Notes: generated by a model not told the origin, from the sequence alone. A DNA stretch of 64,000 bases from an uncultured Candidatus Saccharibacteria bacterium (GCA_964399075.1 CAYNPK010000002.1:20418-84417), one strand, 5' to 3'; counted from the stretch's first letter, positions 6,830 to 59,233 are shown. Translations and numbers: made by a program.

Positions 6830-6832
6830 TGG

Positions 6833-8143: not shown

Positions 8144-8215
8144 GGTAGGACACATCCTTTCTAAAAAAATGTCCCGCAAGCTACACGCCTGCAGGACATC
8201 ATGCACTGCGACTCA

Positions 8216-8356
8216 CTAGTAGCCACAAGTGTCTTTGCCCAACCTGACCGGAGTGCGAAGGTCTTGGTTACCTGCTTTGAGCAGGATAACACCAGAGCTT
8301 TTCACACTAGCCGATCTTACAGGCCGAGTTGCCGGTTTGTCGTTCTTGGTAACCAT
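8216..8356 (-). CDS. 46-aa basic peptide upstream of rSAM no.2; candidate precursor
   Basis: ATG at 8356 with AGGAGG 8 nt upstream. Sequence MVTKNDKPATRPVRSASVKSSGVILLKAGNQDLRTPVRLGKDTCGY. Stop lies about 10 nt before the rSAM ORF. Same length and character as 4158..4298. Confidence 0.4.
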   Translation of the reverse strand: MVTKNDKPATRPVRSASVKSSGVILLKAGNQDLRTPVRLGKDTCGY

Positions 8357-8544
8357 ATGGCTTTCCTCCTTTCTTGCCTATTACCCTCGACTGCTCTTTG
8401 GGTTGAGAATCCAACACGGATTCTCATTTAACCTCATTGACCAAAAGAGTAATGTAAGGAAATAGGACTTGGGGTTTGATGTCGAAGATCTAAAATAGCC
8501 AACAACATCTTATCACTATTTTCCCTATTTTGTCAATAAAACAC

Positions 8545-9363: not shown

Positions 9364-9404
9364 CTCAAGATTCTACCACAGAATGGCTAAAATTAGAAGG
9401 GGTG
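9364..9404 (-). promoter_or_regulatory. repeated promoter module (copy 3), extended -10 TGGTAGAAT only 6 nt from ATG (leaderless arrangement)
   Basis: Minus strand reads CCCCTTCTAATTTTAGCCATTCTGTGGTAGAAT cttgag ATG(9363). Confidence 0.4.
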
Positions 9405-9441
9405 TTGCGTGCTCTGGTAGATTATTGCTATTCTTTGAATA

Positions 9442-10056
9442 ATGAATAAAAATATTGAAATAGAAGTACGTGGCCTGTTGACGAAAGAAAAATTCGATAA
9501 TTTAGTATGTTTATTTGAGGCGAAAGCAAAAAAGACGGCAGAGAAAAATAGAGTTTTGATTGATTACTCCACTTTTTTGGAAGGCGGAGTAAAAAATAGA
9601 AATAAGGATATACGATTGCGAGTAACTAATGGGACTCCAGAAATTATCGTCAAGATTGGTGAATGGGGAGGATCTGAACGACGGAAAGAGCTCTCAGCTT
9701 TTACTAGCCCTGGCGAGTTTGACACCTTAGTTGAGATTTTTGGTGAACTCGGATTTTGTAAAGGAATGTTGTGTGTAAGAAAAAGCAAAGTGTACGAATA
9801 CAGAGATATCGAGTTTGCATTAGTAGAAGTACCAGGACATAGTTATTATTATGAGGCAGAAAAAATGGTGCACGAAGAAGAAGACGCTGAAAAAATAATT
9901 GAAGAAATTAAAAATGTTTGCAAAGAGCTTAATCTTGAAGTTCTTGATAAAAAACATTTTTTTGAGTACATAGAAAAATTAAATAAAGAATCCAATGAGG
10001 TTTTTGAGTACAAAAACCATACTTCAAATTATTTTAAAAATAGATTTAATCTATAA
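9442..10056 (+). CDS. CYTH-domain protein (triphosphate tunnel metalloenzyme family)
   Basis: N-terminal IEIEVRGLL (ExExK-type motif). Paralog of 20073..20681. Confidence 0.6.
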   Translation: MNKNIEIEVRGLLTKEKFDNLVCLFEAKAKKTAEKNRVLIDYSTFLEGGVKNRNKDIRLRVTNGTPEIIVKIGEWGGSERRKELSAFTSPGEFDTLVEIFGELGFCKGMLCVRKSKVYEYRDIEFALVEVPGHSYYYEAEKMVHEEEDAEKIIEEIKNVCKELNLEVLDKKHFFEYIEKLNKESNEVFEYKNHTSNYFKNRFNL

Positions 10057-10126
10057 AGAAATACGAAAATAAAAACGAGCGACGGGTTTTGAACCTGCCG
10101 CTCGTTGGGAGTGAACCATTAGGATG

Positions 10127-10372
10127 TCATCCATGATGACCTCTCACAAAAATTTTCCCTCGGATAATTTTGTGTGCGGGTCTGTTATGGATAACGGCGT
10201 GACGGGCAAACTCTTGACCGCAAAAAGGGCACTTCAGATCGCCGTTGGTGTTATCCAGTATTATCATATCGGAATAACACTTAATGAGTGTTCCTCCACC
10301 CTCTTTTTTGTAGCGGTAAAGCAGAGTCATGCACTTAGCGCAATGTATTGCGATTGTGTATGTTTTTCTCAT
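10127..10372 (-). CDS. small zinc-ribbon protein
   Basis: 81-aa ORF with CAKC...CPFC pairs. Lies 10 nt downstream of the PreA-like gene. Confidence 0.4.
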   Translation of the reverse strand: MRKTYTIAIHCAKCMTLLYRYKKEGGGTLIKCYSDMIILDNTNGDLKCPFCGQEFARHAVIHNRPAHKIIRGKIFVRGHHG

Positions 10373-10381
10373 GTAAATCTC

Positions 10382-11530
10382 CTAGAATGACACCTTGATA
10401 GCGCCAAATTTTGGAGGGCATACTCCAACGCAGGCGTTGCACGAAATGCAATTGTCGGCGATAACCGCCAACGGATTTTCGTCTGCACGACGAACTATTG
10501 AGAGGGCATCAAAGGCGCAGGCACGGACGCAGATTCCGCAACCCGTACACTTCTCTTCGATCACAACAGGACGAGGTGACGAAAACTGGTGTTCACTCGT
10601 CTTGTTGAGTGTAAGTCCGACTAGCTCTTCGACCGAGGCATACTTTGGGTTCTCTGCGAGAAACCTCCGCAAGTCAGCCGTAACCCGCCTGAAGACCGTA
10701 GGACCCTTCAGTGCTGGTGCGGTGTAAAGTTGCACTGCATTTGCACCTGCCATGAGCATCTGAATCACATCGTCTGCGGTGAAGATTCCACCGCAACCGA
10801 CGACTGGGATCTCGAGTTTTTCTGAAAGTTGACGTACACACCATAGAGCAATGGGGAAAATTGCTTTTCCCGTTACTCCACCACCTCCGCCTTTGATTCC
10901 AAGTTTTGGTTTGGCGGTTTTGGTGTCAATCAACATTCCAGGGCCTATGCTGTTTGTGCAAACGATAGCATCAGCTCCCAGTTCTTCAGCTCGTTGCGCC
11001 ATCGGGATCAGCAGGTTCGAGTACGACAGCTTGATCCAGATCGGTGTCGTCGTAACATCACGCACTTTTTTCATCAGTTGTTCTAGATGTAGTGCGTCGA
11101 CATTCAGATTCCCGTGTAGTGCTCCGGAATGTGAACAGGAGATGTTGATCTCGTAAGCATCAACATCTATCTCGTCGAATGTCTGGATCAGATAGCAACA
11201 GCTATCCATGTCGCGCCCAGAAAGCGAGATGATGATCGGGCAACCAGTTTCCTTGACTTGGCGTACTCCATGTTCCTGCCAATCCGTCCACGGCTTTTCG
11301 TTTCCCCACTCGCAGTTAAGCATGTTGTCTTGACCGAAAACTGCGTAGCGTGGAGCTGTGATTCTTGAACGTTCCGCTGGAACATGTTGCTTGAGCGATC
11401 GGGTCACCACGCCAGCACATCCGTATGGTTGAGCCTTCAGGAAAAACTTCGATGTTTCGGTGATGTACCCTGAGGCCAGCAACAACGGAGTCCGTAATTT
11501 CACTTTGCCGACTTGTGCATTGAGAGACAT
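10382..11530 (-). CDS. PreA-like dihydroorotate/dihydropyrimidine dehydrogenase-family flavoprotein with C-terminal 2x[4Fe-4S] ferredoxin domain
   Basis: DHOD-like core (GGGGGVTGKAIFPIALWCV) plus CTGCGICVRACAF and CISCNACVGVCPP. Best start is ATG 11530, 6 nt after GGAGG. Confidence 0.7.
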   Translation of the reverse strand: MSLNAQVGKVKLRTPLLLASGYITETSKFFLKAQPYGCAGVVTRSLKQHVPAERSRITAPRYAVFGQDNMLNCEWGNEKPWTDWQEHGVRQVKETGCPIIISLSGRDMDSCCYLIQTFDEIDVDAYEINISCSHSGALHGNLNVDALHLEQLMKKVRDVTTTPIWIKLSYSNLLIPMAQRAEELGADAIVCTNSIGPGMLIDTKTAKPKLGIKGGGGGVTGKAIFPIALWCVRQLSEKLEIPVVGCGGIFTADDVIQMLMAGANAVQLYTAPALKGPTVFRRVTADLRRFLAENPKYASVEELVGLTLNKTSEHQFSSPRPVVIEEKCTGCGICVRACAFDALSIVRRADENPLAVIADNCISCNACVGVCPPKFGAIKVSF

Positions 11531-12102
11531 GGCCATCCTCCTTTCTTTGTTAAGTGTGATGCCAAAACTTCGAGCACCGCATCCAGAACTCGAGATTCTC
11601 CAGCTTCAGTAACTTCAATTACTGAAGTAAATAGCGAACTTCGCAGCAGGATTGTGTTGATTTCGCTTTCGGCTGTTGTAACTCTTTTTTCTATCTCTGC
11701 CAAACTTTCGGTCTTTCGTACGACAGAAAGTCTTTTGTGGAGCAGTGAGAGGTCAAAAGTCACAAGACCGATAGTGAAAATCTCGGGGTTAATTCTGAGC
11801 GCTTCCAACATGTTGTCTGGATGCACCTCAGTCAGTTTGATGTCTGAACTTGGGAGCAGGTCTTCTTTTCTCAGGCCATAACGATGGCCAAAGAGGTCTT
11901 GGACCAAGACAAGCTCGCTAGAGTCAGTCATGCGATTGAATTCAAGAACTGGAACATGGATTCTGTTTCCGCCCTGCTCGTTTGGACGCAGAGGACGGGT
12001 TGTAAACCATGCCAATTCCTGGATGTGCGGATGAAGTTGTAGCAGTCGTTCCTTAATGAAGCCCTTGCCAATTCCAGAGGGACCGCTAAGAGAGATAATC
12101 AT
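11500..12102 (-). CDS. guanylate kinase-like P-loop protein
   Basis: ISLSGPSGIGKG Walker A and WFTTRPLRPNE guanylate-kinase signature. 3' end overlaps the PreA-like gene start. Confidence 0.6.
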   Translation of the reverse strand: MIISLSGPSGIGKGFIKERLLQLHPHIQELAWFTTRPLRPNEQGGNRIHVPVLEFNRMTDSSELVLVQDLFGHRYGLRKEDLLPSSDIKLTEVHPDNMLEALRINPEIFTIGLVTFDLSLLHKRLSVVRKTESLAEIEKRVTTAESEINTILLRSSLFTSVIEVTEAGESRVLDAVLEVLASHLTKKGGWPCLSMHKSAK

Positions 12103-12204
12103 TACGCCTTCCTTTTCAGTTTGTGAATGTACTATGAAGAGGAAAACTTCCTCTTTCTATTAAAGAAGATAACATAAATAAGTTTTTAAGTAAATAGTAC
12201 GCGT

Positions 12205-12779
12205 CTAGAAATTACTAGCTTTTTCGCCCAGCCTCTCTAAGGCTAAGACTTCATATCTCGGAATTTTGTAACCGCCTCTCTTTTTAATTTCTGCTAGTAA
12301 CAGCTTCATGTAATGCTGAATCGCTCCGAATTTTTCGTATTTTTTATCTGTTTCTGAGGAACACTAAGAATATCTCCCAGAACCTTTCGGCAGTTCTCTG
12401 ATCCACATTCACATTTCATTTTCCATTCTGTTGGAGCCATTGTCATGGAGTAGTCGTAGGTTATTTCTTCTCCCGTATCTATATCCCTAAGCGCAAAAAG
12501 TTCACTCTTTTTTCTTATACCTCCGCTCGGGTCACAGCTGTGATTAAAAGTGCGAGACAGTTCATCAAGATCAATATAGGTTTGTCTGCCAATCTGAAAT
12601 GGGTCATCGATATTTTCTTTGCCGGAAATGACACTGTCTACAAGATTTTTTAGAGTCAATTTTTTCCCATCAAGAACGTGGATAATTTCACCCTTCTTTA
12701 TGTCCTGACCAGCAAAAACTCCCTTACCATACTTGTCGGTATTCTTAACAATTAATTTTTTGTCTGAAAATGAAGTCAT
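12205..12779 (-). pseudogene. SET-domain protein paralog carrying a -1/+1 frameshift in an A6 run (pseudogene or sequencing error)
   Basis: Residues 1-157 (MTSFSDKKLIVKNTDKYGKGVFAG...NHSCDPSG...KCECGSENC) are in one frame to 12306. The C-terminal MKLLLAEIKKRGGYKIPRYEVLALERLGEKASNF continues in another frame to stop at 12205. The switch is at the homopolymer near 12343..12349. Confidence 0.5.
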
Positions 12780-12787
12780 GGTGGGGG

Positions 12788-12950
12788 GGTTATTGAATTA
12801 TATAACACATGATAGTTTACACAACTTCTCACGCTTTTTTATTTTTGCCACACTAGTTATTAATAGATCTAAGGTACTCCAAGCTTGTTTTTACAAAATT
12901 TACAACATTTGGTTCTTTTGTCCAAATCTTTTTTATTTCTTCCACAAACT
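12788..12950. repeat. near-identical copy (~165 nt) of 5321..5485: promoter-module core plus the 3' coding end of a family-A HExxH gene (gene remnant)
   Basis: ggttattgaattatataacacatgatagtttacacaacttctcacgc...ttggttcttttgtccaaatc is shared with few mismatches. No intact ORF here. Confidence 0.6.
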
Positions 12951-12995
12951 TTTTTAAATACGGGTTCATGTTTCTATTATATGATATGTGTAGCC

Positions 12996-13622
12996 CTAGC
13001 TATTTCTTATTATCTTTTCTAAGTTAGGGTAATGATCCTCAAATGCCTTTTTGATTTTCTCTGTCTCATCTATCCCAATAGGTATCTTTTGCCACCTATG
13101 AAGTTCTGGAAAAGCTTTATCAAACAATAATTCAACTAAAGTCTCCTTCTGCCATTGTCCTACTTTGTATTTATCTATCAAAGGTTGGATGTGGAGATGG
13201 ATAGTTTCGTGCAAGAGGGTGTTGATAATGCCCCCCGTGTTTTTCTTAGAAATATTTATGATTACTCCATTCGGCGGTGAATAACTGCCACCGATGCCAT
13301 ATTTTGTTAAAACTATTTCTATTTCAGGGATCGGTTCTAATTTCAATTCTTCAATTAGTTTTAATAATCTGCTTTTTTGAGATTCTATCCCTGCTCTTGC
13401 TTCTTGCTCTATGTTTAAAAAAGTTCCCGCCGAATATTCATTATCTATCCTTTTTTCTAAAGCCTCTTCGGTATCGTTTTCTAAATTTTCCATATCCATT
13501 CCTGTCGGGAAAGTTAGATTATCCAATTTGTAGCCATTAGCTTTAAACCAGTCCAACCTCTTGATTGTCTGGAGGATTCTCGTTTTCTCTAATTTTGGTG
13601 AATATTTAAAGCTGAAGTTCAT
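12996..13622 (-). CDS. HExxH metallopeptidase-like protein, family D (LLHETIHLHIQP)
   Basis: 208-aa ORF with a single HEXXH. Confidence 0.55.
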   Translation of the reverse strand: MNFSFKYSPKLEKTRILQTIKRLDWFKANGYKLDNLTFPTGMDMENLENDTEEALEKRIDNEYSAGTFLNIEQEARAGIESQKSRLLKLIEELKLEPIPEIEIVLTKYGIGGSYSPPNGVIINISKKNTGGIINTLLHETIHLHIQPLIDKYKVGQWQKETLVELLFDKAFPELHRWQKIPIGIDETEKIKKAFEDHYPNLEKIIRNS

Positions 13623-13654
13623 GGTTATGTATTAATAATAGACAAAAAAATGGC

Positions 13655-13690
13655 TCCGGACAAATAATGTTCGGAGCCATCAGGTTATTA
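13655..13690 (-). terminator. rho-independent terminator closing rSAM no.3 - peptide operon
   Basis: ATGGCTCCG-loop-CGGAGCCAT perfect 9-bp stem with TTTTTTT on the minus strand. Confidence 0.5.
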
Positions 13691-13700
13691 CCGCTGTGCC

Positions 13701-13859
13701 TCATAGGCAATCAGGGCAATCGCAATCGGGAGGATTGGGACAATCGTCCGGGTCCGGTTGGCAGTACCCATCGCTCGACAAAGACCGAGCGCGTAGGTTT
13801 TGCACGGGTAAATCTCTTGAGATACCCGGCGTCGTCATCATTTCCGCTAGTGCTTCCAT
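13701..13859 (-). CDS. 52-aa Asp/Pro/Cys-rich peptide, candidate ranthipeptide-like RiPP precursor
   Basis: ATG 13859 preceded by GGAGAAAGGAGAG, 27 nt after the rSAM no.3 stop. Sequence MEALAEMMTTPGISRDLPVQNLRARSLSSDGYCQPDPDDCPNPPDCDCPDCL. GC-rich. Below the ORF-track size cutoff. Confidence 0.5.
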   Translation of the reverse strand: MEALAEMMTTPGISRDLPVQNLRARSLSSDGYCQPDPDDCPNPPDCDCPDCL

Positions 13860-13886
13860 GATGCCAACTCTCCTTTCTCCTGGAAC

Positions 13887-14915
13887 TTACCGTCCAGGTA
13901 CTAGGGTTTGAGCGTCGAAGACTGTCCACATCAGAGGACATCCTCCTCCGCAGTAATCCTTATGCTCACAATCGATGCACCTGTTGGATGGGTATGAGTT
14001 GATCCGGTCGTGATTGGTCGACACCTCCTCACTGTTCAATAGCCTTAGGAGTGAGTTTGCGTCATGAAAATCTTGATCGATTTCTCCTGTTGGAAATTCT
14101 GACATTCCATTACACGCAAGGAGGTTGCCAGCTGGGTCGAATATTACTCCCGTTCTGTTTTGGAATTGACATCCCGTGCAGAGTTGTCGCCTCTCCATGA
14201 GTAGACTAATAAAATCCCTTGGCCACACACAAAGTGGTGTTTTGAGAGAGAGGACCATCCTCCCATCCATCAGTTCGTGAAGCTTCTGGTATTGCGACAC
14301 GATATCTGTGACCAAATCAGCTATTGGGATCATTCCAGTTGTGCTAGGCCCCCGTTTGCCGACTGAAGGAGTGCAAGGACTAATGCTCACGCTATTTGCT
14401 CCACACTCTCGCGCAAAGGTCACAAGTTGGAGAAGTTTACCTCGAACGAAAGAGTTGTAGACCAGGCTAGCCCCGCATCCAAATTCTGAGGCTAATCGAG
14501 ATAGTCCAAGTCTCAATTGTTGCCAGTTGGATATGTGTGCCAGACTTTTACCTGACTCCTCATCGAAAGCTTTGATGGAGGGACTTACCCGATCATTTGG
14601 TGATTTTAGATATCCTGACCAGAAAAGATCGTCAGAAAATCTCTCTCCGTTTGTGACGATTGTGGTCTTGATTCCACAAGCTCTTGACTCCCTGTTGAAT
14701 CTTAAAAGAGGTTCCCAGAGCGTGGGTTCCCCCCCGATCAGGTCAATCTGCTTTATCTCCAAGTCTTTAATTATTGACAGAAGCCTTAGAGATAGTGGTA
14801 GGCTCATTGTTTTGCCACCGTCAAAACCTTGGTTTCTTGCATAACACCATTTACAACGGAAGTTGCACGACAAGTTTGTTGTAATCCAGGCAACCTTTGG
14901 TTTGGCTGTAAGCAT
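13887..14915 (-). CDS. radical SAM / SPASM-domain peptide maturase (rSAM no.3)
   Basis: CNFRCKWC, IGGEPTL, and C-terminal CIDCEHKDYCGGGCPLMW. RBS GGGAGGA 8 nt before ATG 14915. Confidence 0.85.
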   Translation of the reverse strand: MLTAKPKVAWITTNLSCNFRCKWCYARNQGFDGGKTMSLPLSLRLLSIIKDLEIKQIDLIGGEPTLWEPLLRFNRESRACGIKTTIVTNGERFSDDLFWSGYLKSPNDRVSPSIKAFDEESGKSLAHISNWQQLRLGLSRLASEFGCGASLVYNSFVRGKLLQLVTFARECGANSVSISPCTPSVGKRGPSTTGMIPIADLVTDIVSQYQKLHELMDGRMVLSLKTPLCVWPRDFISLLMERRQLCTGCQFQNRTGVIFDPAGNLLACNGMSEFPTGEIDQDFHDANSLLRLLNSEEVSTNHDRINSYPSNRCIDCEHKDYCGGGCPLMWTVFDAQTLVPGR

Positions 14916-15029
14916 TTGAGTTTCCTCCCAATATCAAAGAACAAAATGAGATCGGGACCATCCTGAATCTCGTCTAAGATTAAGACTACGTCTGCTATTT
15001 TATTTTGTCAAGATTATGTATCCGTCTAC

Positions 15030-15112
15030 CCCATCTTTTCTTCCAACAGCTTCTTAGTTTCATTGGGATGGAACATCCAGAAGCCCTCTCCCTCTATGTC
15101 GGTTGGGTAGAA
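15030..15112. repeat. truncated remnant of the 3' end of a family-C gene (cf. 8548..8640)
   Basis: ccccatcttttcttccaacagcttcttagtttcattggg...ccagaagccctctccctctatgtcggttgg is about 90% identical to the 8545..9363 C-terminal coding sequence. Confidence 0.5.
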
Positions 15113-15169
15113 TTAGTGTAATATAAAGATATAGACAACTGTATTTTTTGCAAAATCACTCGAAAAGAA

Positions 15170-15460
15170 TTGCCAAGTGAGATTGTCTTTGAGGACGATG
15201 ATTTTCTCGCTTTTTTGGATATTGAACCGAAAACTCTTGGTCATACTATTTTAATACCCAAACAACATTGTACCCAATTAGAGAGTCTTTCTCGGCCACT
15301 GCAAGAAAAATTGATCAATTTGATCAGTAGACGTTCGGCTGAATTGAAAGAGAAATACAAATACACTAGTACTGTAATTCTAATCAATAACGGCGAAGCG
15401 GTTGAAGACATTAAACATTTCCATGTTCATATCTACGGTTGGCCAGCTACAGAGCTTTAA
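15170..15460 (+). CDS. HIT-family (histidine triad) nucleotide hydrolase; N-terminus disrupted, non-ATG start
   Basis: HFHVHIYG HIT motif. The ORF is open back to 15122 (IKDIDNCIFCKITRKELPSEIVFEDDDFLAFLDIEP) with no ATG/GTG; the first start-like codon is TTG 15170. The upstream sequence is the family-C remnant. Confidence 0.55.
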   Translation: MPSEIVFEDDDFLAFLDIEPKTLGHTILIPKQHCTQLESLSRPLQEKLINLISRRSAELKEKYKYTSTVILINNGEAVEDIKHFHVHIYGWPATEL

Positions 15461-15591
15461 TTTGTCATTTTCCACCAAACAAATCAATTAGATTGACTAG
15501 TGAAAGCCAGATTGTATAAAAAACAAAGAAATGTTAGTCTGTAATTGGTCAGATTGGCTCATTGTGAAGTACCATTGAACCCAGAAAGGGG

Positions 15592-15975
15592 GTGATAAAA
15601 TGCTATAATTTATTTATGGATAACGATGTTGGTCAATTCAAAAAGGAATTGAAACTTGTCAACGATGCTTTGGGATCAGAAGTAATGGAAGAAAAAATAA
15701 TTAAATATCTTACTCCTCTTGTGAAGCGTGTCGCTCAAGAGTTCATCGATGATTACCAACGCCAGAAAAACCTTAAACTAACTGGACAAGAGAAAGCTTT
15801 GGCAACAAAAGCTGGATGGGCGCATCTCCATTTGGCTTTACGCAAATACGCCGAGACGGCAATAGACATGGCAGAGGGGAGGAAGAAGCCATACACTTTC
15901 AGTGCTTATTTTACTTGGTTTGTAAAACAAGGAGTATCTGAATATTTGCAGTTTCAATATTTATCAAAAACTTAA
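15592..15975 (+). CDS. hypothetical protein
   Basis: 127-aa ORF with no motif recognised. Confidence 0.35.
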   Translation: MIKCYNLFMDNDVGQFKKELKLVNDALGSEVMEEKIIKYLTPLVKRVAQEFIDDYQRQKNLKLTGQEKALATKAGWAHLHLALRKYAETAIDMAEGRKKPYTFSAYFTWFVKQGVSEYLQFQYLSKT

Positions 15976-15984
15976 GATCATTCT

Positions 15985-16254
15985 CTAGGCTTTTATTGTC
16001 TCAAAATGTAGAACGACTTCTTTTGGTATGGTCATTGCACCGCGAAGGTCGTCATTTTGATTAGTTACTATCTCTCTAGCCAAAACATAATTATCAGGAT
16101 TATCTTCAATCAAAAAACCGACTACGTGGAAAATATGCAATGGGAAATTCTTATTTGGCGTACTTGGTTTCTCCATCTGTTGATCCCAGAGTACGATATC
16201 TTTGTAAACCAAGAAAACTATTGGGTATTTAGCTGTGTGTTTGTTTGTGGGCAT
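15985..16254 (-). CDS. hypothetical small protein (no Cys; MPTNKHTAKYPIVFLVYKD...)
   Basis: ATG 16254 lies downstream of the intrinsic terminator at 16283..16320. The ORF is in frame with the GC-rich segment upstream but is probably a separate unit. Confidence 0.3.
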   Translation of the reverse strand: MPTNKHTAKYPIVFLVYKDIVLWDQQMEKPSTPNKNFPLHIFHVVGFLIEDNPDNYVLAREIVTNQNDDLRGAMTIPKEVVLHFETIKA

Positions 16255-16282
16255 AATATAACTTAAAATTAATAAAAAAAGG

Positions 16283-16320
16283 TGGCTCTGCATGGTGTAT
16301 GCTCGGCCACCTTTTTGTTG
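16283..16320. terminator. bidirectional intrinsic terminator (A-run, GGTGGC..GCAT-ACACC-ATGC..GCCACC, T-run)
   Basis: Two-tier hairpin flanked by AAAAAAA and TTTTTGTT. Confidence 0.55.
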
Positions 16321-16497
16321 AAAGGGGTCATTCATTTGCCCCTCGTCGAACCACGGCTTCCGCCGCCGGAACCGGCATTGCCGGTGCATGCCGCCTTTTC
16401 CACCCTTGGAATTGCGCACCACGGGGAACGGCGTAGCCTTGTCGCTACCTGGATAGCCCATGCTGTCCGGGCGCCGCGCACAATCGTAGTTGGCCAT
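16320..16497 (-). other. GC-rich (~60% vs ~38% background) segment with strong SD + ATG but no stop before an intrinsic terminator: candidate structured leader/ncRNA or horizontally acquired small ORF
   Basis: AGGAGGTGATAAGC ATG at 16497; putative translation MANYDCARRPDSMGYPGSDKATPFPVVRNSKGGKGGMHRQCRFRRRKPWFDEG... The terminator 16283..16320 lies inside the open frame. Confidence 0.3.
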
Positions 16498-16627
16498 GCT
16501 TATCACCTCCTTTCACTGACCTAAAAAAGTACTACCTTGCCTAGGCACTGTGTCTAGGCAACTGGAAGTTAGTATAGCATGAGGATTGTAATTGTAAAGA
16601 ACTTGTGTTTATAACCAAAACTAATCT

Positions 16628-16715
16628 CACCTCATCTTTTCTTCCACAAACTTCTTAGTTTCATTCTCAAGATTCTACCACAGAATAGCTAAAATTAGAA
16701 GGGGGAGTGCAAAGA
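16628..16715 (-). promoter_or_regulatory. promoter module copy 5 (TGTGGTAGAAT) fused directly to a 3'-terminal remnant of a family-C gene
   Basis: ctcaagattctaccacagaatagctaaaattagaaggggg next to catcttttcttccacaaacttcttagtttcatt. Confidence 0.4.
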
Positions 16716-16888
16716 TTTGGTGAGATGACAGCCTTGTTATTTTTTGAATCGGCGTGAGGGGCTGTTGAATAATCAAGAATAAAGTACTAAGTAAACTGCA
16801 AAGGATGTCCTTGATATTTTGCTACCCAGATGTTAATTTGTAAATAGTGTATGGTTGATTCAATTGGTCTTTAAAAAAGGAAGAAGTT

Positions 16889-18199
16889 ATGAAATTATCG
16901 CGTTTTAATGTTTGGTCGCTTTGTGACCATGGTCTCATTATCTTTAACACTCTTACTTGCGCCTTGTCAGTTTTCGAAGGGGATTACATTGAAAAGGTGT
17001 TCCGGGCTCTCAAGAATGAGGACATTGACAGTATTCCAGGAGAATTTTTGCTGGCAATGTCTGAGGATGGTTATTTAGTTGAGGACGAACTCGATGAACT
17101 TGGATTTATCAGAGATGCTTGCTGTGAAAGACGGTCTAAAACGGACGAGTACTCCCTGTGTGTGATTCTTACAATGGATTGCAACTTGGATTGCGCCTAT
17201 TGCTTCCAGAAGCATTCCAAAGAAAATCTATCACAGGTTGAAGTTGCCAAGGTTTTGAACATGTTTCGAGGGATAGCAACCAAGGCAAAGAGGATTGAAG
17301 TTGACTGGTTTGGTGGCGAGCCACTTCGCTCGTTCAGTGTTCTGAAATCCATGAATGATCAGCTTATGGCTATTGCTCAAGCTTCGGGTGTAGATTATCA
17401 GCATTCAATTACTACTAATGGTTACTACCTAAGCCATAAAGTAATCACCTATCTAGCCAAAACTCCTCTCTCGATTCTCACGATCACTCTGGATGGTCCC
17501 GCAGAAACTCACGATCGTAGTCGGCCAACAAAAAGTGGTCAGCCAACATTCCTTAAGATTCTCGAGAATGTTCAGATGGCGATTAAGGCTGGTCTGAATA
17601 TTTCTATTCGGGTTAACATTACTACTCTGAATGTTGATCGGGTTCATGAGTTGTATGATGTCTTGGAGTCGCGTGGTCTCAAGAACAAAGTTGAGGTTAA
17701 TCTCCAGGCAGTGGTTTCTTCTGACGTTAGATCGTGTGAGGAATACTGTCTTTCTGGACACGACTTCGCTTGTCGATCAATGAGGATATACAAGTGGGCA
17801 GCACAAAAAGGATGGGTGGTTTTTCCTCCCACGGAAAAATTGAGGGCTTTGGGATTTTGTGTTGGAGAGTACCCGAATCGCTTCATCACTGATCTCCATG
17901 GGAACTTGTATCGATGTAGTCAAATGACGGACGACGAGATGGTCGGCGCCCTAGATGACGATGGCTCAATCATTCTTCGGGAGACGGAGAATGAACTTTG
18001 GATTAACAAAGATCCTCTCAAGTTTCCTGAATGTCAAGGATGCTCAATCTTACCCATTTGCATGGGCGGTTGTAATCTTAAGCGGCGCGCCGGCAAAAAG
18101 TCAGTAGACTACTGTCTCGACTGGAAACATGATTTACCCGGCTTGCTTGAGGTCTTAGTGCTGAATGAGAGAAATATCGCCCTCTCCCAGCTGGATTGA
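16889..18199 (+). CDS. radical SAM / SPASM-domain peptide maturase (rSAM no.4)
   Basis: CNLDCAYC, FGGEPL, and C-terminal CQGCSILPICMGGCNLKR. RBS AAGGAAGAAG before ATG. Confidence 0.85.
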   Translation: MKLSRFNVWSLCDHGLIIFNTLTCALSVFEGDYIEKVFRALKNEDIDSIPGEFLLAMSEDGYLVEDELDELGFIRDACCERRSKTDEYSLCVILTMDCNLDCAYCFQKHSKENLSQVEVAKVLNMFRGIATKAKRIEVDWFGGEPLRSFSVLKSMNDQLMAIAQASGVDYQHSITTNGYYLSHKVITYLAKTPLSILTITLDGPAETHDRSRPTKSGQPTFLKILENVQMAIKAGLNISIRVNITTLNVDRVHELYDVLESRGLKNKVEVNLQAVVSSDVRSCEEYCLSGHDFACRSMRIYKWAAQKGWVVFPPTEKLRALGFCVGEYPNRFITDLHGNLYRCSQMTDDEMVGALDDDGSIILRETENELWINKDPLKFPECQGCSILPICMGGCNLKRRAGKKSVDYCLDWKHDLPGLLEVLVLNERNIALSQLD

Positions 18200-30212: not shown

Positions 30213-30338
30213 TCTGACTGTCCGGCCAACTTGACTTCTTGTTAGCCTCTGCTAGGATAAGGTGACGCCAGAAAGCGCTGTTTTATTATTGCGAATGGTT
30301 TATTATAAAAAGTAGTTATTAATAATTAAATAATTATC

Positions 30339-33189: not shown

Positions 33190-33489
33190 ATGGCTACAAC
33201 TACTGCCCAAACTACTAATAGCGTTATCAAACAACCTCACGTTACTGAGCGAACCACGGCGTTTTCTATGGACAATGATCATCCAGTTTACACTTTCGTG
33301 ATTGATAAACGAGTCAACCGACTAGCAGTTAAATCTGCAGTCAAAGAGCTTTATGGGGTTACACCGATTCGCGTTAACATCGTTAATAGCCCAATTAAAC
33401 CAATGTTTCGCAAGGGTATTCTCGGTCATAAGGCCGGTTTTAAAAAAGCGATGGTTTATTTAAAGAAGGGCGACAAAATTAATTTATGA
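33190..33489 (+). CDS. rplW: 50S ribosomal protein L23
   Basis: L23 pattern. Confidence 0.85.
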   Translation: MATTTAQTTNSVIKQPHVTERTTAFSMDNDHPVYTFVIDKRVNRLAVKSAVKELYGVTPIRVNIVNSPIKPMFRKGILGHKAGFKKAMVYLKKGDKINL

Positions 33490-34331
33490 AAAGTCATCGA
33501 CCAACTAGTCCGGGCCGTCGTCAAACCGTTACGATTAATTATCGGAAAGTGTTAACAGCGACTAAGCCGGCCAAAGCTTTAACTCAAGGTTTCCGACGCG
33601 CTGTCGGCCACAATAATGTTGGTCGGATAACTGTTCGCCATAAGGGTGGTGGTCATAAGCGTCTCTATCGTGAGATTGATTTTCTTTATGATAAAAAAGA
33701 TATTTCCGCGCGCGTGGAAACGATTGAATACGATCCTAATCGAAGCGGTTTTATCGGTTTGGTTTGTTATCAGGATGGAGATCGTCGCTACACTCTTTTG
33801 CCGGCCGGCTTGAAGGTTGGCGACTCTCTTATTGTTTCCGCTCAAGCTGAATTAAAAACCGGTAATCGCTTGCCTCTTAATAAGATTCCCGTTGGTACTT
33901 TTGTTTATAATATTGAAAATCAGCCAAATGGTGGCGCCAAGCTTGTCCGTTCGGCTGGCAGTTTCGCTCAAGTTTTGTCCCACGATGCCGGTTACGCTAA
34001 TTTGAAATTGCCCTCAACGGAAGTTCGTCGAATTAGTGATCAAGCTTGGGCCTCTATTGGCGCCGTTTCTAACGATGAACGTAAGTTGGTAAGTTTAGGC
34101 AAGGCCGGCCGATCGCGTTGGTTGGGCACTCGGCCGACTGTTCGTGGTACTGCTAAAAATCCAGTTGACCACCCTCATGGCGGTGGCGAGGGTTGTCAGG
34201 GCATAGGTTTGCGCCGTGGTCCTAAGACCTCTTGGGGTAAATTAGCTTACGGAGTTAAAACCAGGCGCAAAAAGAAATATTCGCGTAATTTAATTGTTAG
34301 TCGTCGACAGAAACGCTTAAGAAAGAAATAA
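33486..34331 (+). CDS. rplB: 50S ribosomal protein L2
   Basis: GGGHKRLYR and HPHGGGEG. Confidence 0.95.
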   Translation: MKSHRPTSPGRRQTVTINYRKVLTATKPAKALTQGFRRAVGHNNVGRITVRHKGGGHKRLYREIDFLYDKKDISARVETIEYDPNRSGFIGLVCYQDGDRRYTLLPAGLKVGDSLIVSAQAELKTGNRLPLNKIPVGTFVYNIENQPNGGAKLVRSAGSFAQVLSHDAGYANLKLPSTEVRRISDQAWASIGAVSNDERKLVSLGKAGRSRWLGTRPTVRGTAKNPVDHPHGGGEGCQGIGLRRGPKTSWGKLAYGVKTRRKKKYSRNLIVSRRQKRLRKK

Positions 34332-34336
34332 ATTTT

Positions 34337-35014
34337 ATGAAATCAGGTCTACTTTTGAGTTTAATTTGTGGATTGTTGTTTGCTCAAATGGCAATAGCGA
34401 CAGTTGTTCCATTGCCTATTGAAATCGAAATCAATGAGACTAATGAAGAGATCGTCAGTAGTGATAATTACCAATTACCTAGAAGTTGGTTCTTGCTTAA
34501 AAAACATCAGGGGGTTGGTGATTTGGCAATTATTTCAGACGGTTCTGATTCTATTGTTGAACCACGTGCTGGTGGTTTAGCTAGAATCATTACTACCCCT
34601 TTTGATGAATCTTGGGTTGCTGAAGGAGCGTCTATTGTGGCGGTTTCTTCCCTAGATGCCGGAGTTACCACAGCCGTTGTTACTCCCGATCCCAAAGACA
34701 ATAGTTTGGAACTCAATTTTGAACCACCGCTCGCTAGTGGGGCTTGTTACAGTCTTAATTTAGTGATTAATAATCCCGATAATACTATTGACTCAGTTTC
34801 TACTCCCTTGGCGCCAATTAAAGTCTTGTCTGGTGATGTGGATAGTAACGGAGTTGTTGATAATCAAGACATTCGATTGATCAGAGAACACCTCGATCAA
34901 TTTGTTGATTCGGCTACCGCCAAATATGATCTCACTGGTAATGGCAAAATTAATTTTGCTGACCGCTGGTTTGCCCTTTTCCGAGTAGGGGATAAAGTTA
35001 GTGCTTGCAATTGA
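34337..35014 (+). CDS. secreted protein with C-terminal dockerin-type Ca-binding repeats, inserted between rplB and rpsS
   Basis: Signal peptide MKSGLLLSLICGLLFAQMAIA. Dockerin-like repeats GDVDSNGVVDNQDIRLIREHL and YDLTGNGKINFAD. Starts 5 nt after the rplB stop. Confidence 0.55.
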   Translation: MKSGLLLSLICGLLFAQMAIATVVPLPIEIEINETNEEIVSSDNYQLPRSWFLLKKHQGVGDLAIISDGSDSIVEPRAGGLARIITTPFDESWVAEGASIVAVSSLDAGVTTAVVTPDPKDNSLELNFEPPLASGACYSLNLVINNPDNTIDSVSTPLAPIKVLSGDVDSNGVVDNQDIRLIREHLDQFVDSATAKYDLTGNGKINFADRWFALFRVGDKVSACN

Positions 35015-35079
35015 CATCTTTGTTGGTTTTGTTAATATGAGTAACAATCTGCTTAGGTTGGGTAGATTGGGTTTTATTT

Positions 35080-38335: not shown

Positions 38336-38390
38336 AGTTGACTTTAGAGAGTTAGCTTGTTAGGATAAGCATTGCCCTAAGGGGCGTTTT

Positions 38391-39917: not shown

Positions 39918-40421
39918 ATGGAATCAACTCAACAAAAATCAAGACCAAGCAATCGCCGTTCCGGCCAGAGACCCGAGCGAGCCAAGCCGGAATTTGAACA
40001 AAAGATTTTGGATATTCGGCGAGTCACTCGAGTCGTTAGAGGCGGTCGTCGCTTTAGCTTCTCTTTAGTCGTCGCTATCGGCGATCGTCGCGGTCAGATT
40101 GGCTTGGGGGTTGGCAAGGGTAGTGACATCGCTGCGGCGATGGGCAAAGCCTACCGCGAGGCTAAGAAGGAAATGTTCCGTCTTCCTCTGACCAAGAATT
40201 CGTCTTTACCCCACGAGGTTGAGGCCAAGTCTTGCGGTTCGCGAGTAATAATTCGCCCCGCTAAAGGTCGAGGCTTAGTTGCTGGTAGTTCGGTGAGAAC
40301 CATTTTGGCTCTTGGCGGAGTCCGTGATGTGAGTGCCAAGATTAATTCAAAGAGTAAAAATAAACTCAATAACGCTAGAGTTACTATTAAAGCCCTTCGT
40401 CAACTGCAGTCAGTAATATAA
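39918..40421 (+). CDS. rpsE: 30S ribosomal protein S5
   Basis: S5 pattern. Followed after 10 nt by L15 with no L30 gene. Confidence 0.9.
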   Translation: MESTQQKSRPSNRRSGQRPERAKPEFEQKILDIRRVTRVVRGGRRFSFSLVVAIGDRRGQIGLGVGKGSDIAAAMGKAYREAKKEMFRLPLTKNSSLPHEVEAKSCGSRVIIRPAKGRGLVAGSSVRTILALGGVRDVSAKINSKSKNKLNNARVTIKALRQLQSVI

Positions 40422-40430
40422 AATCTAAAC

Positions 40431-40871
40431 ATGCAAATACATCAACTTATTCCTAATACTCCTAATAAAAAGTCCAAATCCATCGGTCGTGGTGGTAAAC
40501 GTGGCAAGACTTCTGGTCGAGGGACTAAGGGGCAACGCGCTCGCGCTGGACACCGTATTCGTCCAGAATTACGAGATTTAATTAAAAAGATCCCCAAACA
40601 ACGCGGTTATCGTTTCCATTCCATTGAACAAAAAATGGTTGTAATCAACTTAAGCTCATTAGAGAAAAACTTTGAGGCCAATGCCAAAATTACCCCAACT
40701 CTCTTGGTTGAGAAGAAATTAATTTCCGCTAGACTGTCTCCCTCACTCTCTTTGTTGATTAAAGTCTTGGGTACCGGTAATCTTAGCAAGCCTTTGATCA
40801 TTTCCGGTTGCGCCGTTTCCGCCCCGGCGCGTGTTAAAATAGAGGCTGTCGGTGGCCAGGTGTTGAAATAA
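40431..40871 (+). CDS. rplO: 50S ribosomal protein L15
   Basis: L15 pattern. Confidence 0.9.
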   Translation: MQIHQLIPNTPNKKSKSIGRGGKRGKTSGRGTKGQRARAGHRIRPELRDLIKKIPKQRGYRFHSIEQKMVVINLSSLEKNFEANAKITPTLLVEKKLISARLSPSLSLLIKVLGTGNLSKPLIISGCAVSAPARVKIEAVGGQVLK

Positions 40872-43744: not shown

Positions 43745-46513
43745 ATGGAATTATCTAAACTTTCGCCTGAAACTAAAGTTTTTACCAATCCGGAAGAGGA
43801 ATTGAAATATTTACGTGCAGAAATTAGCAAACGAGAGCGCGAATTAGAAGAGCGTGGTCAACTAACACCTAAAGCTGAAGTAGCGAAGTCAGTTCTTGAT
43901 GATTATCAAGAACAGCCAAGTTCGGAAGTGTTGCATCCCCATTTTACTTTGCCAGCGCAAGAAGTTGAAGAAATCGTTCTTAATTTAAAACCAGAACTTC
44001 ACGATGACAAAATGTCAGAATTGTTGGGCTTGATTCAAACTAAAGGGGTTAAAAATACTCTAGTCATGGTGGATAAATTAGCTAATCCTCATCTGACTGA
44101 TGATTTCCATCGATTTCTAGTTGCTTATTTGGTTAGCGGTTATCCAGTCTTGGGACTTAAGCAAAAGTCAGCCCTCTGGAAGACTTTCCAGATGACTCTT
44201 TATGAGATTACTTTACCTTTGGCCGATAAACAAGAACCGGCTAAGCCCTTGAGAGAATTACTTTCTAGCATGGAGCAATTTTACGCCGGCATGCTGTCGA
44301 TTAAAGATCTTGATGATCTTGGACCTAATCATTTTACTCTGGAAATTGCCGTTGCTAATCAGAGTGATGAGTTTATTTTTTATGCCGCTGTGCCAACAGC
44401 ACGAAAGAATTTATTCGAGAAGCAGTTGTTGGCGATTTTTCCCTTAGCTCAGCTTGTTCCGGCGCCAGACGATTATAATATTTTTAATGCCGATGGTGTT
44501 TCTGTTGGTGCTTATGCCAAGCTTGATCGTTCGGCTATTTATCCGCTCAAGACTTATGATAATTTCGACTACGATCCGCTTAATATTCTGTTAAATAGTT
44601 TTTCTAAAACCAATAGACAGGGCGAGGGGGCGGCAATTCAATTAGTGTTTAAGCCTACTGGTGATCATTATGCCAAGCAGTATCGCCACACTCTTGATCA
44701 ATTGAATCGCGGTGTTGGTCTTAAAGAAGCTTTACCGGCCGAGACTTTGTGGTCAGAGTTTTCCCGATCGGGACTGGTTAAAGATGTTCAGGAGTTCTTT
44801 TTTCCTGAAAAATCGAGTAAGACATCAGAGCCAAAAGAGTCGAAATCTAAACCAGTTGATCAATCGGTAGTTAAGCTGTTTGAGGAGAAAGTTGCCTCGC
44901 CGATAGCGACAGTCAATTTGCGTTTAATCGCTTCTGGTCCAAGTCGCGGTAGTACTGAAGCGATCTTAGCTGATATGGAAGCATCTTTTAATCAATTTAG
45001 TAATTCTGGTGGTAACAAGTTAGCTTTTGTTCGTCCGACTGGTTCAAAATTAGATGCTTTGCTAAAAAGTTATTCTTTTCGAGATTTTGATTTTCACCAC
45101 TCTCTGCCTTTAAATCTTAAAGAGGTCGTTAGTGTGGCTCATTTGCCGACTACTGGTCGTGTGCCGACTTCTCAACTTAAGCAAAGTAAAGCTGGTCAAT
45201 CGGCTCCACCAACTGGCTTGCTTGATAGCGGTTTGTTGTTGGGAGTTAATCGTTATCAGCAGAAAGAGACAAAGATTTTCATGTCAGCTGAAGATCGCCT
45301 TCGTCACTTCTATGTCATTGGTCAGACTGGTACTGGTAAAACAACCTTGTTAAAAAATATGATCGCCCAAGATATTGCGACTGGTGAAGGGGTTTGCTTC
45401 ATTGATCCTCACGGTAACGATGTGGAAGAAATTCTTAGTTATATTCCCCAGAATCGTTATGAAGATTTAACTTATTTTGACCCAAGTCACACGGCTCGCC
45501 CCATTGGTCTTAACATGCTGGAATTTGATCCGGATTATCCTGAACAAAAAACCTTTGTGGTTAACGAGATGATTTCTATTTTTAATAAACTTTTTGACAT
45601 GAAGACGGTTGGTGGACCGATGTTCGAACAGTATTTCCGAAACGCGGTTTTGTTGATCATGGAAGATCCAGCTTCCGGCAACACTTTATTGGATGTCTCG
45701 CGAGTCTTAGCTGACAAGCGTTTTCGTGAACTTAAATTAAGTCGTTGTCGTAACCCAATTGTTTTGCAATTTTGGCGCGAGGTGGCCGAGAAGGCTGGCG
45801 GCGAAGCCGCCTTGTCCAATATCGTTCCTTACATCACCAGTAAGTTTGATATTTTCTTAAGTAATGACATTATGCGACCGATTGTCGTGCAGGAGAAATC
45901 AAGTCTCAATTTCCGTCAGATTATGGATGAAAAAAAGATTCTTCTCGTTAATTTATCTAAGGGTCGCTTGGGAGATATTAATGCCCATCTCATCGGCTTG
46001 ATTATTGTTGGTAAAATATTGATGGCGGCCCTCTCGCGAATTGGCAGTCAGTCCAGCGCTGTTCCGGCCTTCTACCTCTATATTGATGAATTCCAGAATG
46101 TAACCACTGACTCGATTGCTACCATTTTGTCCGAGGCGCGAAAATATAAATTAGGCTTAACGGTTGCCCATCAATTTATCGCCCAATTGGAGGAAAATAT
46201 TCGTGACGCTGTTTTTGGCAACGTCGGGTCTATGGCGGCCTTTAGAGTTGGGGCTACTGACGCGGAACATTTGGTTAAACAATTTGAGCCGATATTCTCC
46301 ACGACAGATTTAATGAACTTAGACAATAGGCATGCTTATCTTAGGTTACTGGTGAATGGCCGTCCGGTAAAGCCTTTCGACATTGAGACTTTAGCGCCAC
46401 CGCCTGGTATCTCTGTCGAAGCTCTAGCTAGCCTAAAGCAATTATCTTATGCTAAACATGGTAGTGATAGAGCTGTTGTGGAAGAGGCGATTATGCTAAA
46501 ATACAAAAATTAA
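43745..46513 (+). CDS. 922-aa P-loop ATPase of the VirD4/TraG/TraD (HerA-FtsK-like) family with ~480-aa N-terminal domain of unknown function
   Basis: Walker A GQTGTGKTT, ...FIDPHG..., and Walker B LYIDEFQNV. Confidence 0.6.
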   Translation: MELSKLSPETKVFTNPEEELKYLRAEISKRERELEERGQLTPKAEVAKSVLDDYQEQPSSEVLHPHFTLPAQEVEEIVLNLKPELHDDKMSELLGLIQTKGVKNTLVMVDKLANPHLTDDFHRFLVAYLVSGYPVLGLKQKSALWKTFQMTLYEITLPLADKQEPAKPLRELLSSMEQFYAGMLSIKDLDDLGPNHFTLEIAVANQSDEFIFYAAVPTARKNLFEKQLLAIFPLAQLVPAPDDYNIFNADGVSVGAYAKLDRSAIYPLKTYDNFDYDPLNILLNSFSKTNRQGEGAAIQLVFKPTGDHYAKQYRHTLDQLNRGVGLKEALPAETLWSEFSRSGLVKDVQEFFFPEKSSKTSEPKESKSKPVDQSVVKLFEEKVASPIATVNLRLIASGPSRGSTEAILADMEASFNQFSNSGGNKLAFVRPTGSKLDALLKSYSFRDFDFHHSLPLNLKEVVSVAHLPTTGRVPTSQLKQSKAGQSAPPTGLLDSGLLLGVNRYQQKETKIFMSAEDRLRHFYVIGQTGTGKTTLLKNMIAQDIATGEGVCFIDPHGNDVEEILSYIPQNRYEDLTYFDPSHTARPIGLNMLEFDPDYPEQKTFVVNEMISIFNKLFDMKTVGGPMFEQYFRNAVLLIMEDPASGNTLLDVSRVLADKRFRELKLSRCRNPIVLQFWREVAEKAGGEAALSNIVPYITSKFDIFLSNDIMRPIVVQEKSSLNFRQIMDEKKILLVNLSKGRLGDINAHLIGLIIVGKILMAALSRIGSQSSAVPAFYLYIDEFQNVTTDSIATILSEARKYKLGLTVAHQFIAQLEENIRDAVFGNVGSMAAFRVGATDAEHLVKQFEPIFSTTDLMNLDNRHAYLRLLVNGRPVKPFDIETLAPPPGISVEALASLKQLSYAKHGSDRAVVEEAIMLKYKN

Positions 46514-59159: not shown

Positions 59160-59233
59160 TGCGCGTGCTTGGATTCGAACCAAGGGCCGCCGAGGTATAA
59201 GCTCGGTGCTCTAACCAGCTGAGCTACACGCGC
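59160..59233 (-). tRNA. tRNA-Ile, anticodon UAU (74 nt, no encoded CCA)
   Basis: GCGCGTG acceptor, GTAGCTCAGCTGGTTAGAGC D-arm, anticodon loop CTTATAC, TTCGAAT T-loop. All stems pair. Confidence 0.7.

Follow-up and report, generated by a model that had tools for sequence, protein, structure and literature searches.

Dockerins have been described both in cellulosomes and outside them. In cellulosomes, type I dockerins (PF00404; Xyn10B, 2ccl/1ohz) are joined to glycoside hydrolases, and the X-module–dockerin (XDoc) dyad of the Clostridium thermocellum scaffoldin CipA (2b59, 3kcp, 4fl4) places an immunoglobulin-like (Ig-like) β-sandwich directly N-terminal to a two-loop Ca2+ dockerin. Non-cellulosomal dockerin proteins (Peer et al. 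2009, as cited in PMC10066038) are secreted by hosts that do not degrade cellulose, are mostly large and multidomain, and have proposed roles in surface assembly or adhesion. Non-cellulosomal cohesin–dockerin systems, termed the 'planctosome', have been proposed in Planctomycetes, with dockerins as adhesins or anchors (PMC6461901), the dockerin-rich giant proteins of Omnitrophota have been put forward as adhesins (PMC10066038), and a dockerin-domain envelope protein, SEML1_0315, is essential in the cultured epibiotic Saccharibacterium Southlakia (PMC10633639). Here we analyse ORFX, a 225-residue open reading frame (ORF) on the + strand at 34337-35014 of a 64,000-nt stretch listed as an uncultured Candidatus Saccharibacteria bacterium (GCA_964399075.1 CAYNPK010000002.1:20418-84417; this whole stretch is the window). 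ORFX lies between the ribosomal protein genes rplB and rpsS and encodes a predicted secreted protein made of an Ig-like domain and a dockerin. We favour, with moderate confidence, the reading that it is an exported Ig–dockerin anchoring module located at a clade-specific break between rplB and rpsS, where it ends a tuf-rplB-ORFX transcription unit.

The features of the locus on which this reading is built are the following, with model confidence given as predicted local distance difference test (pLDDT) values.

33486-34331, + strand: rplB (ribosomal protein L2, 281 aa; Pfam Ribosomal_L2_N/C)
34337-35014, + strand: ORFX, predicted secreted Ig-like plus dockerin protein, 225 aa
34337-34399, + strand: predicted signal peptide, residues 1-21, signal peptidase I cleavage between AIA and T (read from sequence)
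34400-34480, + strand: acidic linker, residues 22-48 (27 residues), pLDDT 45-64, not present in homologues
34481-34825, + strand: Ig-like β-sandwich, residues 49-163 (family alignment and AlphaFold2 model)
34745-34747, + strand: Cys137 codon
34826-34981, + strand: dockerin module, residues 164-215, with helices 176-183 and 207-214
34835-34870, + strand: dockerin Ca2+ loop 1, D167-D178
34928-34963, + strand: dockerin Ca2+ loop 2, D198-D209
35006-35008, + strand: Cys224 codon, penultimate residue
35080-35442, + strand: rpsS (ribosomal protein S19, 120 aa), first gene of the next unit

ORF calling on the window placed ORFX 5 nt after the rplB stop codon, which ends at 34331, and 65 nt before the rpsS ATG at 35080, exactly as a first-pass annotation of this DNA had it. 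The N terminus reads MKSGLLLSLICGLLFAQMAIA followed by TVV and, judged by eye, has a single basic residue, a hydrophobic core, an A-x-A cleavage motif and no lipobox, which bears out the classical signal peptide claimed in that annotation; we take it as a predicted Sec signal peptide. The homologues P0005, P0024 and P0052 likewise start with signal peptides. The Pfam Dockerin_1 profile (PF00404), the check on which the annotation had staked its two dockerin repeats, matches residues 166-209 of ORFX at 30.4 bits (E=4.7e-07; gathering cut-off 22.9), and both loops are present (D167-V-D-S-N-G-V-V-D-N-Q-D178 and D198-L-T-G-N-G-K-I-N-F-A-D209). They form two tandem F-hand segments, each a 12-residue Ca2+ loop plus a helix, with the helices at pLDDT ~98. 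In an alignment of 35 family members, G166, D167, D178 and D198 are invariant and L164, G203 and D209 near-invariant (D209 in at least 90%), positions 1 and 12 of both Ca2+ loops being among these residues. The best PDB sequence matches of ORFX are solved dockerins; NCBIfam gave no match to ORFX. On the Pfam score and the two predicted F-hands, ORFX is assigned to the dockerin family.

The Ig-like domain that precedes the dockerin carries its own conserved motifs in the 35-member alignment (W51, H57-G, G61, E75-P-R77, G79-G80, F89 and Cys137). An AlphaFold2 model built on that alignment (mean pLDDT 81.7, predicted template modelling score (pTM) 0.73) has a β-sandwich at residues 50-163 and a dockerin at 166-225 at pLDDT ~98, residues 1-48 being of low confidence. 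Cys137 and Cys224 are both found in 22 of the 35 homologues and both missing from 11; two homologues have the C-terminal cysteine only and none has the Ig cysteine only. Because the two cysteines co-occur in this way, we infer a disulfide between them that would clasp the C terminus onto the Ig-like domain. No transmembrane segment, lipobox, sortase motif or SLH domain was seen in ORFX, and Pfam and NCBIfam scans gave no catalytic or carbohydrate-binding domain.

A word-indexed protein search with ORFX returned ORFX itself only, and one with a 4-member alignment returned only the three members already known, because dockerin words saturate the prefilter. The family was uncovered by an exhaustive HMMER scan of 1.84 billion representatives, which found 122 relatives of ORFX. 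The alignment spans both the Ig-like region and the dockerin as a single stretch (~residues 50-220) in 80 relatives; the module ends no more than 15 aa from the C terminus in 66 of these 80, 47 of the 80 are at least 400 aa long, and the larger relatives bear additional domains (polysaccharide deacetylase, beta-helix, PKD and Big_5). Residues 49-225 are one conserved Ig-like plus dockerin unit, which in other bacteria is the C-terminal tail of many large secreted proteins, both enzymes and adhesin-like proteins; in ORFX the unit stands alone, with no enzyme joined to it. Family members P0047, P0003 and P0033 are encoded in ordinary, non-ribosomal contexts in bacteria outside the candidate phyla radiation (CPR).

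The nearest solved analogue of the ORFX module is the XDoc dyad of cellulosomal scaffoldins. A Foldseek search of the model against the PDB ranks 4fl4_C, a CipA cohesin–X–dockerin chain, at the top, ahead of generic Ig-like folds (CopC, PD-1 and Sap S-layer domains, for example). The family profile matches PDB dockerins at up to 2.4e-11 and, along a longer stretch, X-module–dockerin dyads, namely 2b59_B at E=1e-7 (profile positions 97-218) and 3kcp/4fl4, 5g5d, 4wi0 and 4u3s. Like XDoc, ORFX has the β-sandwich directly N-terminal to a two-loop Ca2+ dockerin, its domain pair is predicted as one rigid unit by the pTM given above, and the family profile aligns over both parts of 2b59_B and 3kcp_A. 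Unlike XDoc, it comes without scaffoldin, cohesin repeat, carbohydrate-binding module or enzyme, it comes from a CPR bacterium whose genome is tiny and shows nothing of a cellulosome, and it has the additional co-varying cysteine pair. Because the similarity of the Ig part is weak, its homology to X modules is not established, and neither is homology to Big_5 (PF13205): ORFX itself gave no match to Big_5 even at E≤10, whereas the equivalent region of homologues P0008, P0015 and P0021 matches above the cut-off, so the Ig part is at best a divergent Big_5 relative.

The dockerin part, in turn, resembles the type I dockerins of cellulosomal enzymes in scoring above the Pfam cut-off and in its duplicated F-hand, with D/N ligands at positions 1, 3, 5, 9 and 12 and a helix after each loop; it differs in that no glycoside hydrolase is joined to it and in the Thr at position 3 of the second loop. 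At what we take to be the cohesin-recognition positions, ORFX has N-Q and F-A, where C. thermocellum has Ser-Thr pairs. ORFX does not fit the definition of a cellulosome component, a dockerin borne by a scaffoldin or carbohydrate-active enzyme where the genome also encodes cohesin scaffoldins, and the 64-kb window showed neither a glycoside hydrolase nor a scaffoldin. With the non-cellulosomal dockerin proteins it shares predicted secretion and a host without cellulose degradation; it differs from them as a minimal stand-alone module, and none of them has been reported at a ribosomal-protein locus. ORFX is best described as a predicted minimal, non-cellulosomal, XDoc-like dockerin module with a putative disulfide clasp, conserved at its site in three lineages.

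The other two lineages are those of loci L083 and L090; a search with the family hidden Markov model against six-frame translations of ~160 rplB-flanking loci (GTDB genomes and JGI metagenomes) gave no positional homologue beyond theirs. P0005 (locus L083) and P0024 and P0052 (locus L090) are encoded directly after rplB and are full-length, short homologues with a signal peptide and 24-31% identity to ORFX. L083 has the order rpsJ-rplC-rplD-rplW-rplB-dockerin, followed by another secreted protein. L090 (GCA_964651115.1) runs from tuf-rpsJ through to rplB, then to the tandem dockerin paralogues P0024 and P0052, an opposite-strand membrane protein of 263-267 aa and an 803-aa secreted protein with Kre9_KNH Ig-like repeats, and only then to rpsS-rplV-rpsC-rplP. 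L2 is 72-85% identical among the window, L083 and L090 lineages (72-74% between the window and the two others) and no more than ~71% identical to all other sampled loci. Because homologues adjoin rplB in two related lineages, the dockerin insertion is old and retained; the simplest reading is a single ancestral insertion after rplB, kept during rapid protein divergence, and the position of ORFX is not an accident.

The first-pass annotation had regarded this insertion as unusual on the grounds that rplB-rpsS is among the most conserved gene adjacencies in bacteria. We measured the rplB-to-rpsS distance in 160 rplB loci drawn from GTDB species representatives and JGI metagenomes, and in the window's own clade that premise fails. 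The close group, defined by an L2 at least 57% identical to the window's, comprises 89 informative loci, the closest of which are labelled Nomurabacteria, Kaiserbacteria, Taylorbacteria, Sungbacteria and Paceibacterota. The distance is at most 60 nt in 4 of these, 61-300 nt in 23, 301-1500 nt in 29 and more than 1500 nt in 15, and in 18 no rpsS is found within at least 2 kb. Among 38 loci from distant lineages (Moranbacteria, Peregrinibacteria and others), by contrast, 29 have at most 60 nt and the other 9 have 61-300 nt, with 0 in the remaining classes. Tight rplB-rpsS adjacency is specifically not conserved in the window's clade. In the synteny comparison that the annotation had proposed, homologues follow rplB in L083 and L090, and the junction is broken clade-wide. 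Because the clade's junction is routinely broken and gathers accessory genes, the ORFX insertion is moderately unusual.

The cargo found between rplB and rpsS in relatives is diverse. It includes IS200-like (Y1_Tnp) and IS1595-like transposases; MazEF-like and nucleotidyltransferase/HEPN toxin–antitoxin pairs, as well as a STAS-like and ATPase-like pair; a GIY-YIG nuclease and a retron-type reverse transcriptase; and MacAB-type transporters, ComEC, a pilin-like protein and secreted Ig-repeat proteins. Selfish or defence-type cargo was recorded in L093 (6835-9508), L096 (2811-3482), L050, L109 and L017. Three loci, L152 (~655-1140 nt after rplB), L153 and L161, have rplJ-rplL (L10 and L7/L12) between rplB and rpsS, accompanied by a mechanosensitive-channel-like membrane protein and, in L153, also by a MazE/MazF-like pair. 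Large secreted proteins are encoded in the islands of L090 (6495-8906), L096 (4413-6698) and L083 (4113-4619). They share a signal peptide followed by a Gln/Leu-rich helix (for example LIAQLQAMI and LLAQIAALQAQI), Kre9_KNH-type Ig repeats and an amphipathic C-terminal helix, and may, on these traits, represent one surface-protein family of these lineages. L096 encodes an additional 205-aa secreted protein with an EF-hand-like loop.

How ORFX would be expressed depends on the punctuation of the cluster, for which the window has the following features.

30231-30258, + strand: promoter-like site between fusA and tuf, TTGACT-16-TGc-TAGGAT (consensus match), putative start of the unit ending with ORFX
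35011-35038, + strand: rpsS promoter-like site, -35 TTGACA, 16-nt spacer, TG-extended -10 TAATAT
35045-35079, + strand: hairpin (35045-35069, -11.4 kcal/mol) plus U-rich tract up to the rpsS ATG
38338-38390, + strand: promoter, hairpin and U-run of the same design, before rpsN

The genes before ORFX, fusA-tuf-rpsJ-rplC-rplD-rplW-rplB, lie on the same strand as ORFX. The 5-nt spacer leaves no room for a promoter or terminator of its own, and a promoter scan gave no promoter-like site between 33183 and 34746; because of this spacing and the lack of a promoter-like site in the 3' part of rplB, ORFX would ride on the rplB transcript, most likely translated by termination–reinitiation. No Shine-Dalgarno sequence was seen in any gene of the ORFX operon, and the upstream context of ORFX resembles that of its ribosomal neighbours. 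Downstream, the -35 of rpsS (35011-35016) overlaps the ORFX stop codon, the TG-extended -10 lies at 35033-35038, and the leader continues after the hairpin with GGTTTTATTT and then the ATG. Because rpsS has this near-consensus promoter-like site of its own, the transcription unit that runs from tuf through rplB probably closes with ORFX, which would then not be a gene inside an operon. Of the earlier claim that ORFX lies within a co-transcribed S10 operon, the part that puts it on the rplB transcript thus probably holds, and the part that places it inside the operon probably does not.

The rpsS punctuation recurs in relatives. An all-against-all comparison of the gaps returned a ~60-nt block abutting rpsS, made of TTGAC(A/T), 16-17 nt, TG-n-TAnnAT, a 5-7-bp hairpin 6-8 nt past the -10 and a U-run 10-20 nt from the rpsS ATG, and 36 of the 48 related loci inspected carry the promoter-plus-hairpin design ahead of rpsS. 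In relatives the -35 often comes after a strong intrinsic terminator (L007, L008, L009, L016 and L030 are examples). Counted on a hand-specified 6-bp helix, the hairpin is paired in 90% of alignment cells, compared with 22-61% when the partner columns are slid, with 7 compensatory cells, a value reached by 0 of 500 shuffles; RNAalifold on a MAFFT alignment gave only 3 pairs, in the hairpin core. The rpsS leaders of the window and L090 have the same design with unrelated, longer stems. Loci with the module directly upstream of rpsS were recorded across L007-L137, and the corresponding module of tuf spans 30231-30290 in the window. Because the same module also precedes tuf and rpsN, promoter, hairpin and U-run are a punctuation that the window genome uses generally, rather than a regulator specific to rpsS. 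As for its role, the hairpin may end transcription of the upstream unit, protect the downstream mRNA as a stem at its 5' end, or do both. We infer three transcription units: tuf to rplB-ORFX, rpsS to rplE, and rpsN with the genes that follow. One further candidate was set aside: a structured noncoding RNA in the ORF-poor, relatively GC-rich rplB-rpsS gaps of relatives had no match in Rfam, and the shared block resolved into a promoter and a short hairpin, not a riboswitch-like RNA.

Taken together, the history we propose begins in a large Parcubacteria (Paceibacteria) group, in which the S10 cluster would have been cut after rplB and rpsS would have gained a strong promoter of its own, leaving an inter-operon gap in which accessory genes could build up. 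The ancestor of the window lineage and its two sister lineages would have gained a dockerin gene in that gap, and all three retain it. In the window genome the gene would have been compacted against rplB and would lack a promoter of its own, ORFX probably being the last cistron of a tuf-rpsJ-rplC-rplD-rplW-rplB-ORFX transcript, coupled to rplB translation and hence abundant. In the protein, the Ig-like β-sandwich would pack on the two-loop Ca2+ dockerin with the Cys137-Cys224 disulfide clasping both, and ORFX is predicted to dock, in a Ca2+-dependent manner, onto a cohesin-like surface protein. Because no enzyme is attached, it would act as an adaptor or cap and not as an enzyme, with the Ig face or the acidic N-terminal tail as its sole displayed cargo.

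Several observations weigh against this reading. No cohesin (PF00963), the partner for which the first-pass annotation had suggested a search, was found among 10 non-housekeeping window proteins, which included an HtrA-like protease, an Ltp-like lipoprotein, radical-SAM enzymes and a HerA/TraG-like ATPase, or among 6 island proteins of relatives; as none occurs among the proteins scanned within the 64-kb window and the relatives' islands, the docking partner is hypothetical. The Foldseek matches in the PDB are all weaker than E 0.001, that of the Ig part to the X module is weak, and the sequence alignment with 2b59_B rests mainly on the dockerin part. Support for the disulfide consists of cysteine co-occurrence. 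The promoter, terminator and co-transcription calls are consensus-based predictions, and a generic promoter scan was not enriched over shuffles (23 sites versus 18.8 expected). The family was found in three lineages only and in none of the ~160 other rplB-flanking loci. Finally, the dockerin genes of L083 and L090 begin 83 nt after rplB, have promoter-like sites of their own and are followed by GC-rich, terminator-like hairpins. Because of these, co-transcription with ribosomal genes is not conserved, and the coupling to ribosomal-protein expression appears to be a derived feature of the window lineage.

The strongest competitor, which we rate as possible and clearly less probable than an anchoring module, is that ORFX is an adhesin for a host or partner cell, in which the Ig-like domain or the dockerin binds the other cell and placement after rplB couples adhesin supply to growth; this is the idea behind the episymbiotic lifestyle that the first-pass annotation suggested the gene may reflect. 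Such a role would suit a secreted protein that combines these two domains, the large secreted Ig-like-repeat (Kre9_KNH) proteins encoded at the same site in related lineages, and the precedents of the Omnitrophota adhesin candidates and the essential dockerin protein of an epibiotic Saccharibacterium. It fits less well with the absence, noted above, of any visible means of holding ORFX to the cell that makes it, because of which an adhesin would still need a docking partner on its own cell; the rplB coupling on which it draws is not kept in L083 and L090, and our data identify no host.

It is rather unlikely that ORFX is instead a passenger, the horizontally acquired tail of a larger dockerin protein that landed in a permissive hot spot and has little or no function. 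The module is indeed normally the C-terminal tail of big non-CPR proteins in ordinary genomic contexts, and the site gathers mobile and selfish DNA in relatives (the transposases, toxin–antitoxin pairs and GIY-YIG nuclease listed above). Against this, the gene has been kept at the site in three lineages whose L23 and L2 are now 50-74% identical; signal peptide, Ca2+ ligands, Ig motifs and both cysteines are intact although identity is down to 24-31%; and L090 carries a tandem duplication. ORFX also shows no sign of recent arrival: its composition is operon-like (GC 0.407, GC at third codon positions 0.296, codon-usage score -1.05, all within the range of the neighbouring ribosomal genes), and a search for direct and inverted repeats found only 12-13-nt chance repeats at its flanks. 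With no transposase within the insert either, the marks of a mobile-element insertion (repeats, an integrase or transposase, deviant composition) are missing.

That ORFX is an artefact, whether of chimeric assembly or as a spacer ORF that arose by chance, is effectively refuted. The source is metagenomic, and the last 30 nt of the SRR11845628 contig (L002 1264-1293) differ from the window after 35047, within the rpsS leader hairpin, which could be a contig-end artefact or a strain variant. The per-run assemblies of SRR11845627 and SRR11845628 nevertheless match the window across the rplB-ORFX-rpsS locus with 100% identity, along 5683 nt in the first and 1263 nt in the second, and because two independent assemblies agree across the junctions, misassembly is very unlikely. 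The Pfam match above the gathering cut-off, the confidently predicted structure and the positional homologues in other genomes speak equally against a chance ORF, and a fusion to rplB is excluded because the two genes are in different reading frames. The first-pass annotation had named absence from all relatives together with misassembly as what would overturn its proposal; relatives carry the insertion and the assemblies are identical. A ribosome- or translation-related role, to which only the position and 5-nt spacing from rplB and the lack of rpmC from its usual place point, is highly improbable given a signal peptide and dockerin fold that indicate an extracellular location, homologues that are tails of secreted enzymes, and sister-lineage genes whose own promoter-like sites and terminator-like hairpins fit separate transcription.

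Compared with the canonical S10-spc cluster (rpsJ-rplCDWB-rpsS-rplV-rpsC-rplP-rpmC-rpsQ and onward), the window keeps the canonical gene order on either side of ORFX but is cut after rplB and before rpsN by promoter-plus-hairpin modules, the former cut being common to a large Parcubacteria clade; it also lacks rpmC between rplP and rpsQ, and rpmD. In the case of rpmC (L29), rplP ends at 36882 and rpsQ starts at 36888, and tblastn found no L29-like sequence elsewhere in the window. The rplP-rpsQ interval is 200-320 nt in most relatives, consistent with a divergent rpmC, and L008, L029, L112 and L124 are likewise without space for the gene. As for rpmD (L30), it is absent between rpsE and rplO (40421-40431), and it is generally reported to be absent from CPR bacteria. 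S19 has a Lys/Ala-rich C-terminal extension of ~25-30 residues, relatives aligning over residues 1-100 of its 120 only. The ribosomal/secY/adk/map cluster ends with a 922-aa HerA/TraG/TrwB-like ATPase (43745-46513) directly after map. Elsewhere in the window, 3061-18199 holds two Pfam-confirmed radical-SAM proteins (6833-8206 and 16889-18199), two further ORFs with radical-SAM-like Cys motifs at their N termini as read from the sequence (3061-4122 and 13887-14915), and interspersed small uncharacterised ORFs; it looks like a peptide-modification locus of the kind that makes ribosomally synthesized and post-translationally modified peptides. A tRNA-Ile with anticodon TAT lies at 59160-59233 on the - strand; this tRNA is uncommon in bacteria, in which AUA is usually decoded by a lysidine-modified CAT tRNA.

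In the open-access literature we found no paper on a break of the S10 cluster in CPR bacteria, none on a dockerin gene at a ribosomal locus and no report of the ribosomal-cluster architecture described here. Marker-gene concatenation, contig binning and synteny checks widely treat the rplB-rpsS adjacency as fixed. In this clade, variable cargo of 0.1 kb to more than 4 kb usually separates the two genes, or the pair is broken up entirely, and an insertion there should not count as misassembly; the junction is a natural spot to seek lineage-specific accessory genes. The promoter, hairpin and U-run before rpsS, tuf and rpsN offer a testable model of transcription punctuation in very short spacers. 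More speculatively, and with a probability that we put below that of the adhesin, a large Parcubacteria clade may have re-wired the most conserved gene cluster in bacteria, its rplB-rpsS boundary having become a punctuated island that recruits surface, defence and mobile genes next to very highly expressed ones; in one sub-lineage a long-held, cargo-less XDoc-like protein would organise or cap a cohesin-type surface scaffold, which might be the machinery for attachment to host cells. For the little-described surface and partner attachment of Parcubacteria, a small, probably abundant and easily expressed Ig–dockerin protein would serve as a bait for its receptor, be it a host ligand or a scaffold of the cohesin-like kind. 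The finding does not amount to a new mechanism; it provides a usable handle on the surface biology of Parcubacteria.

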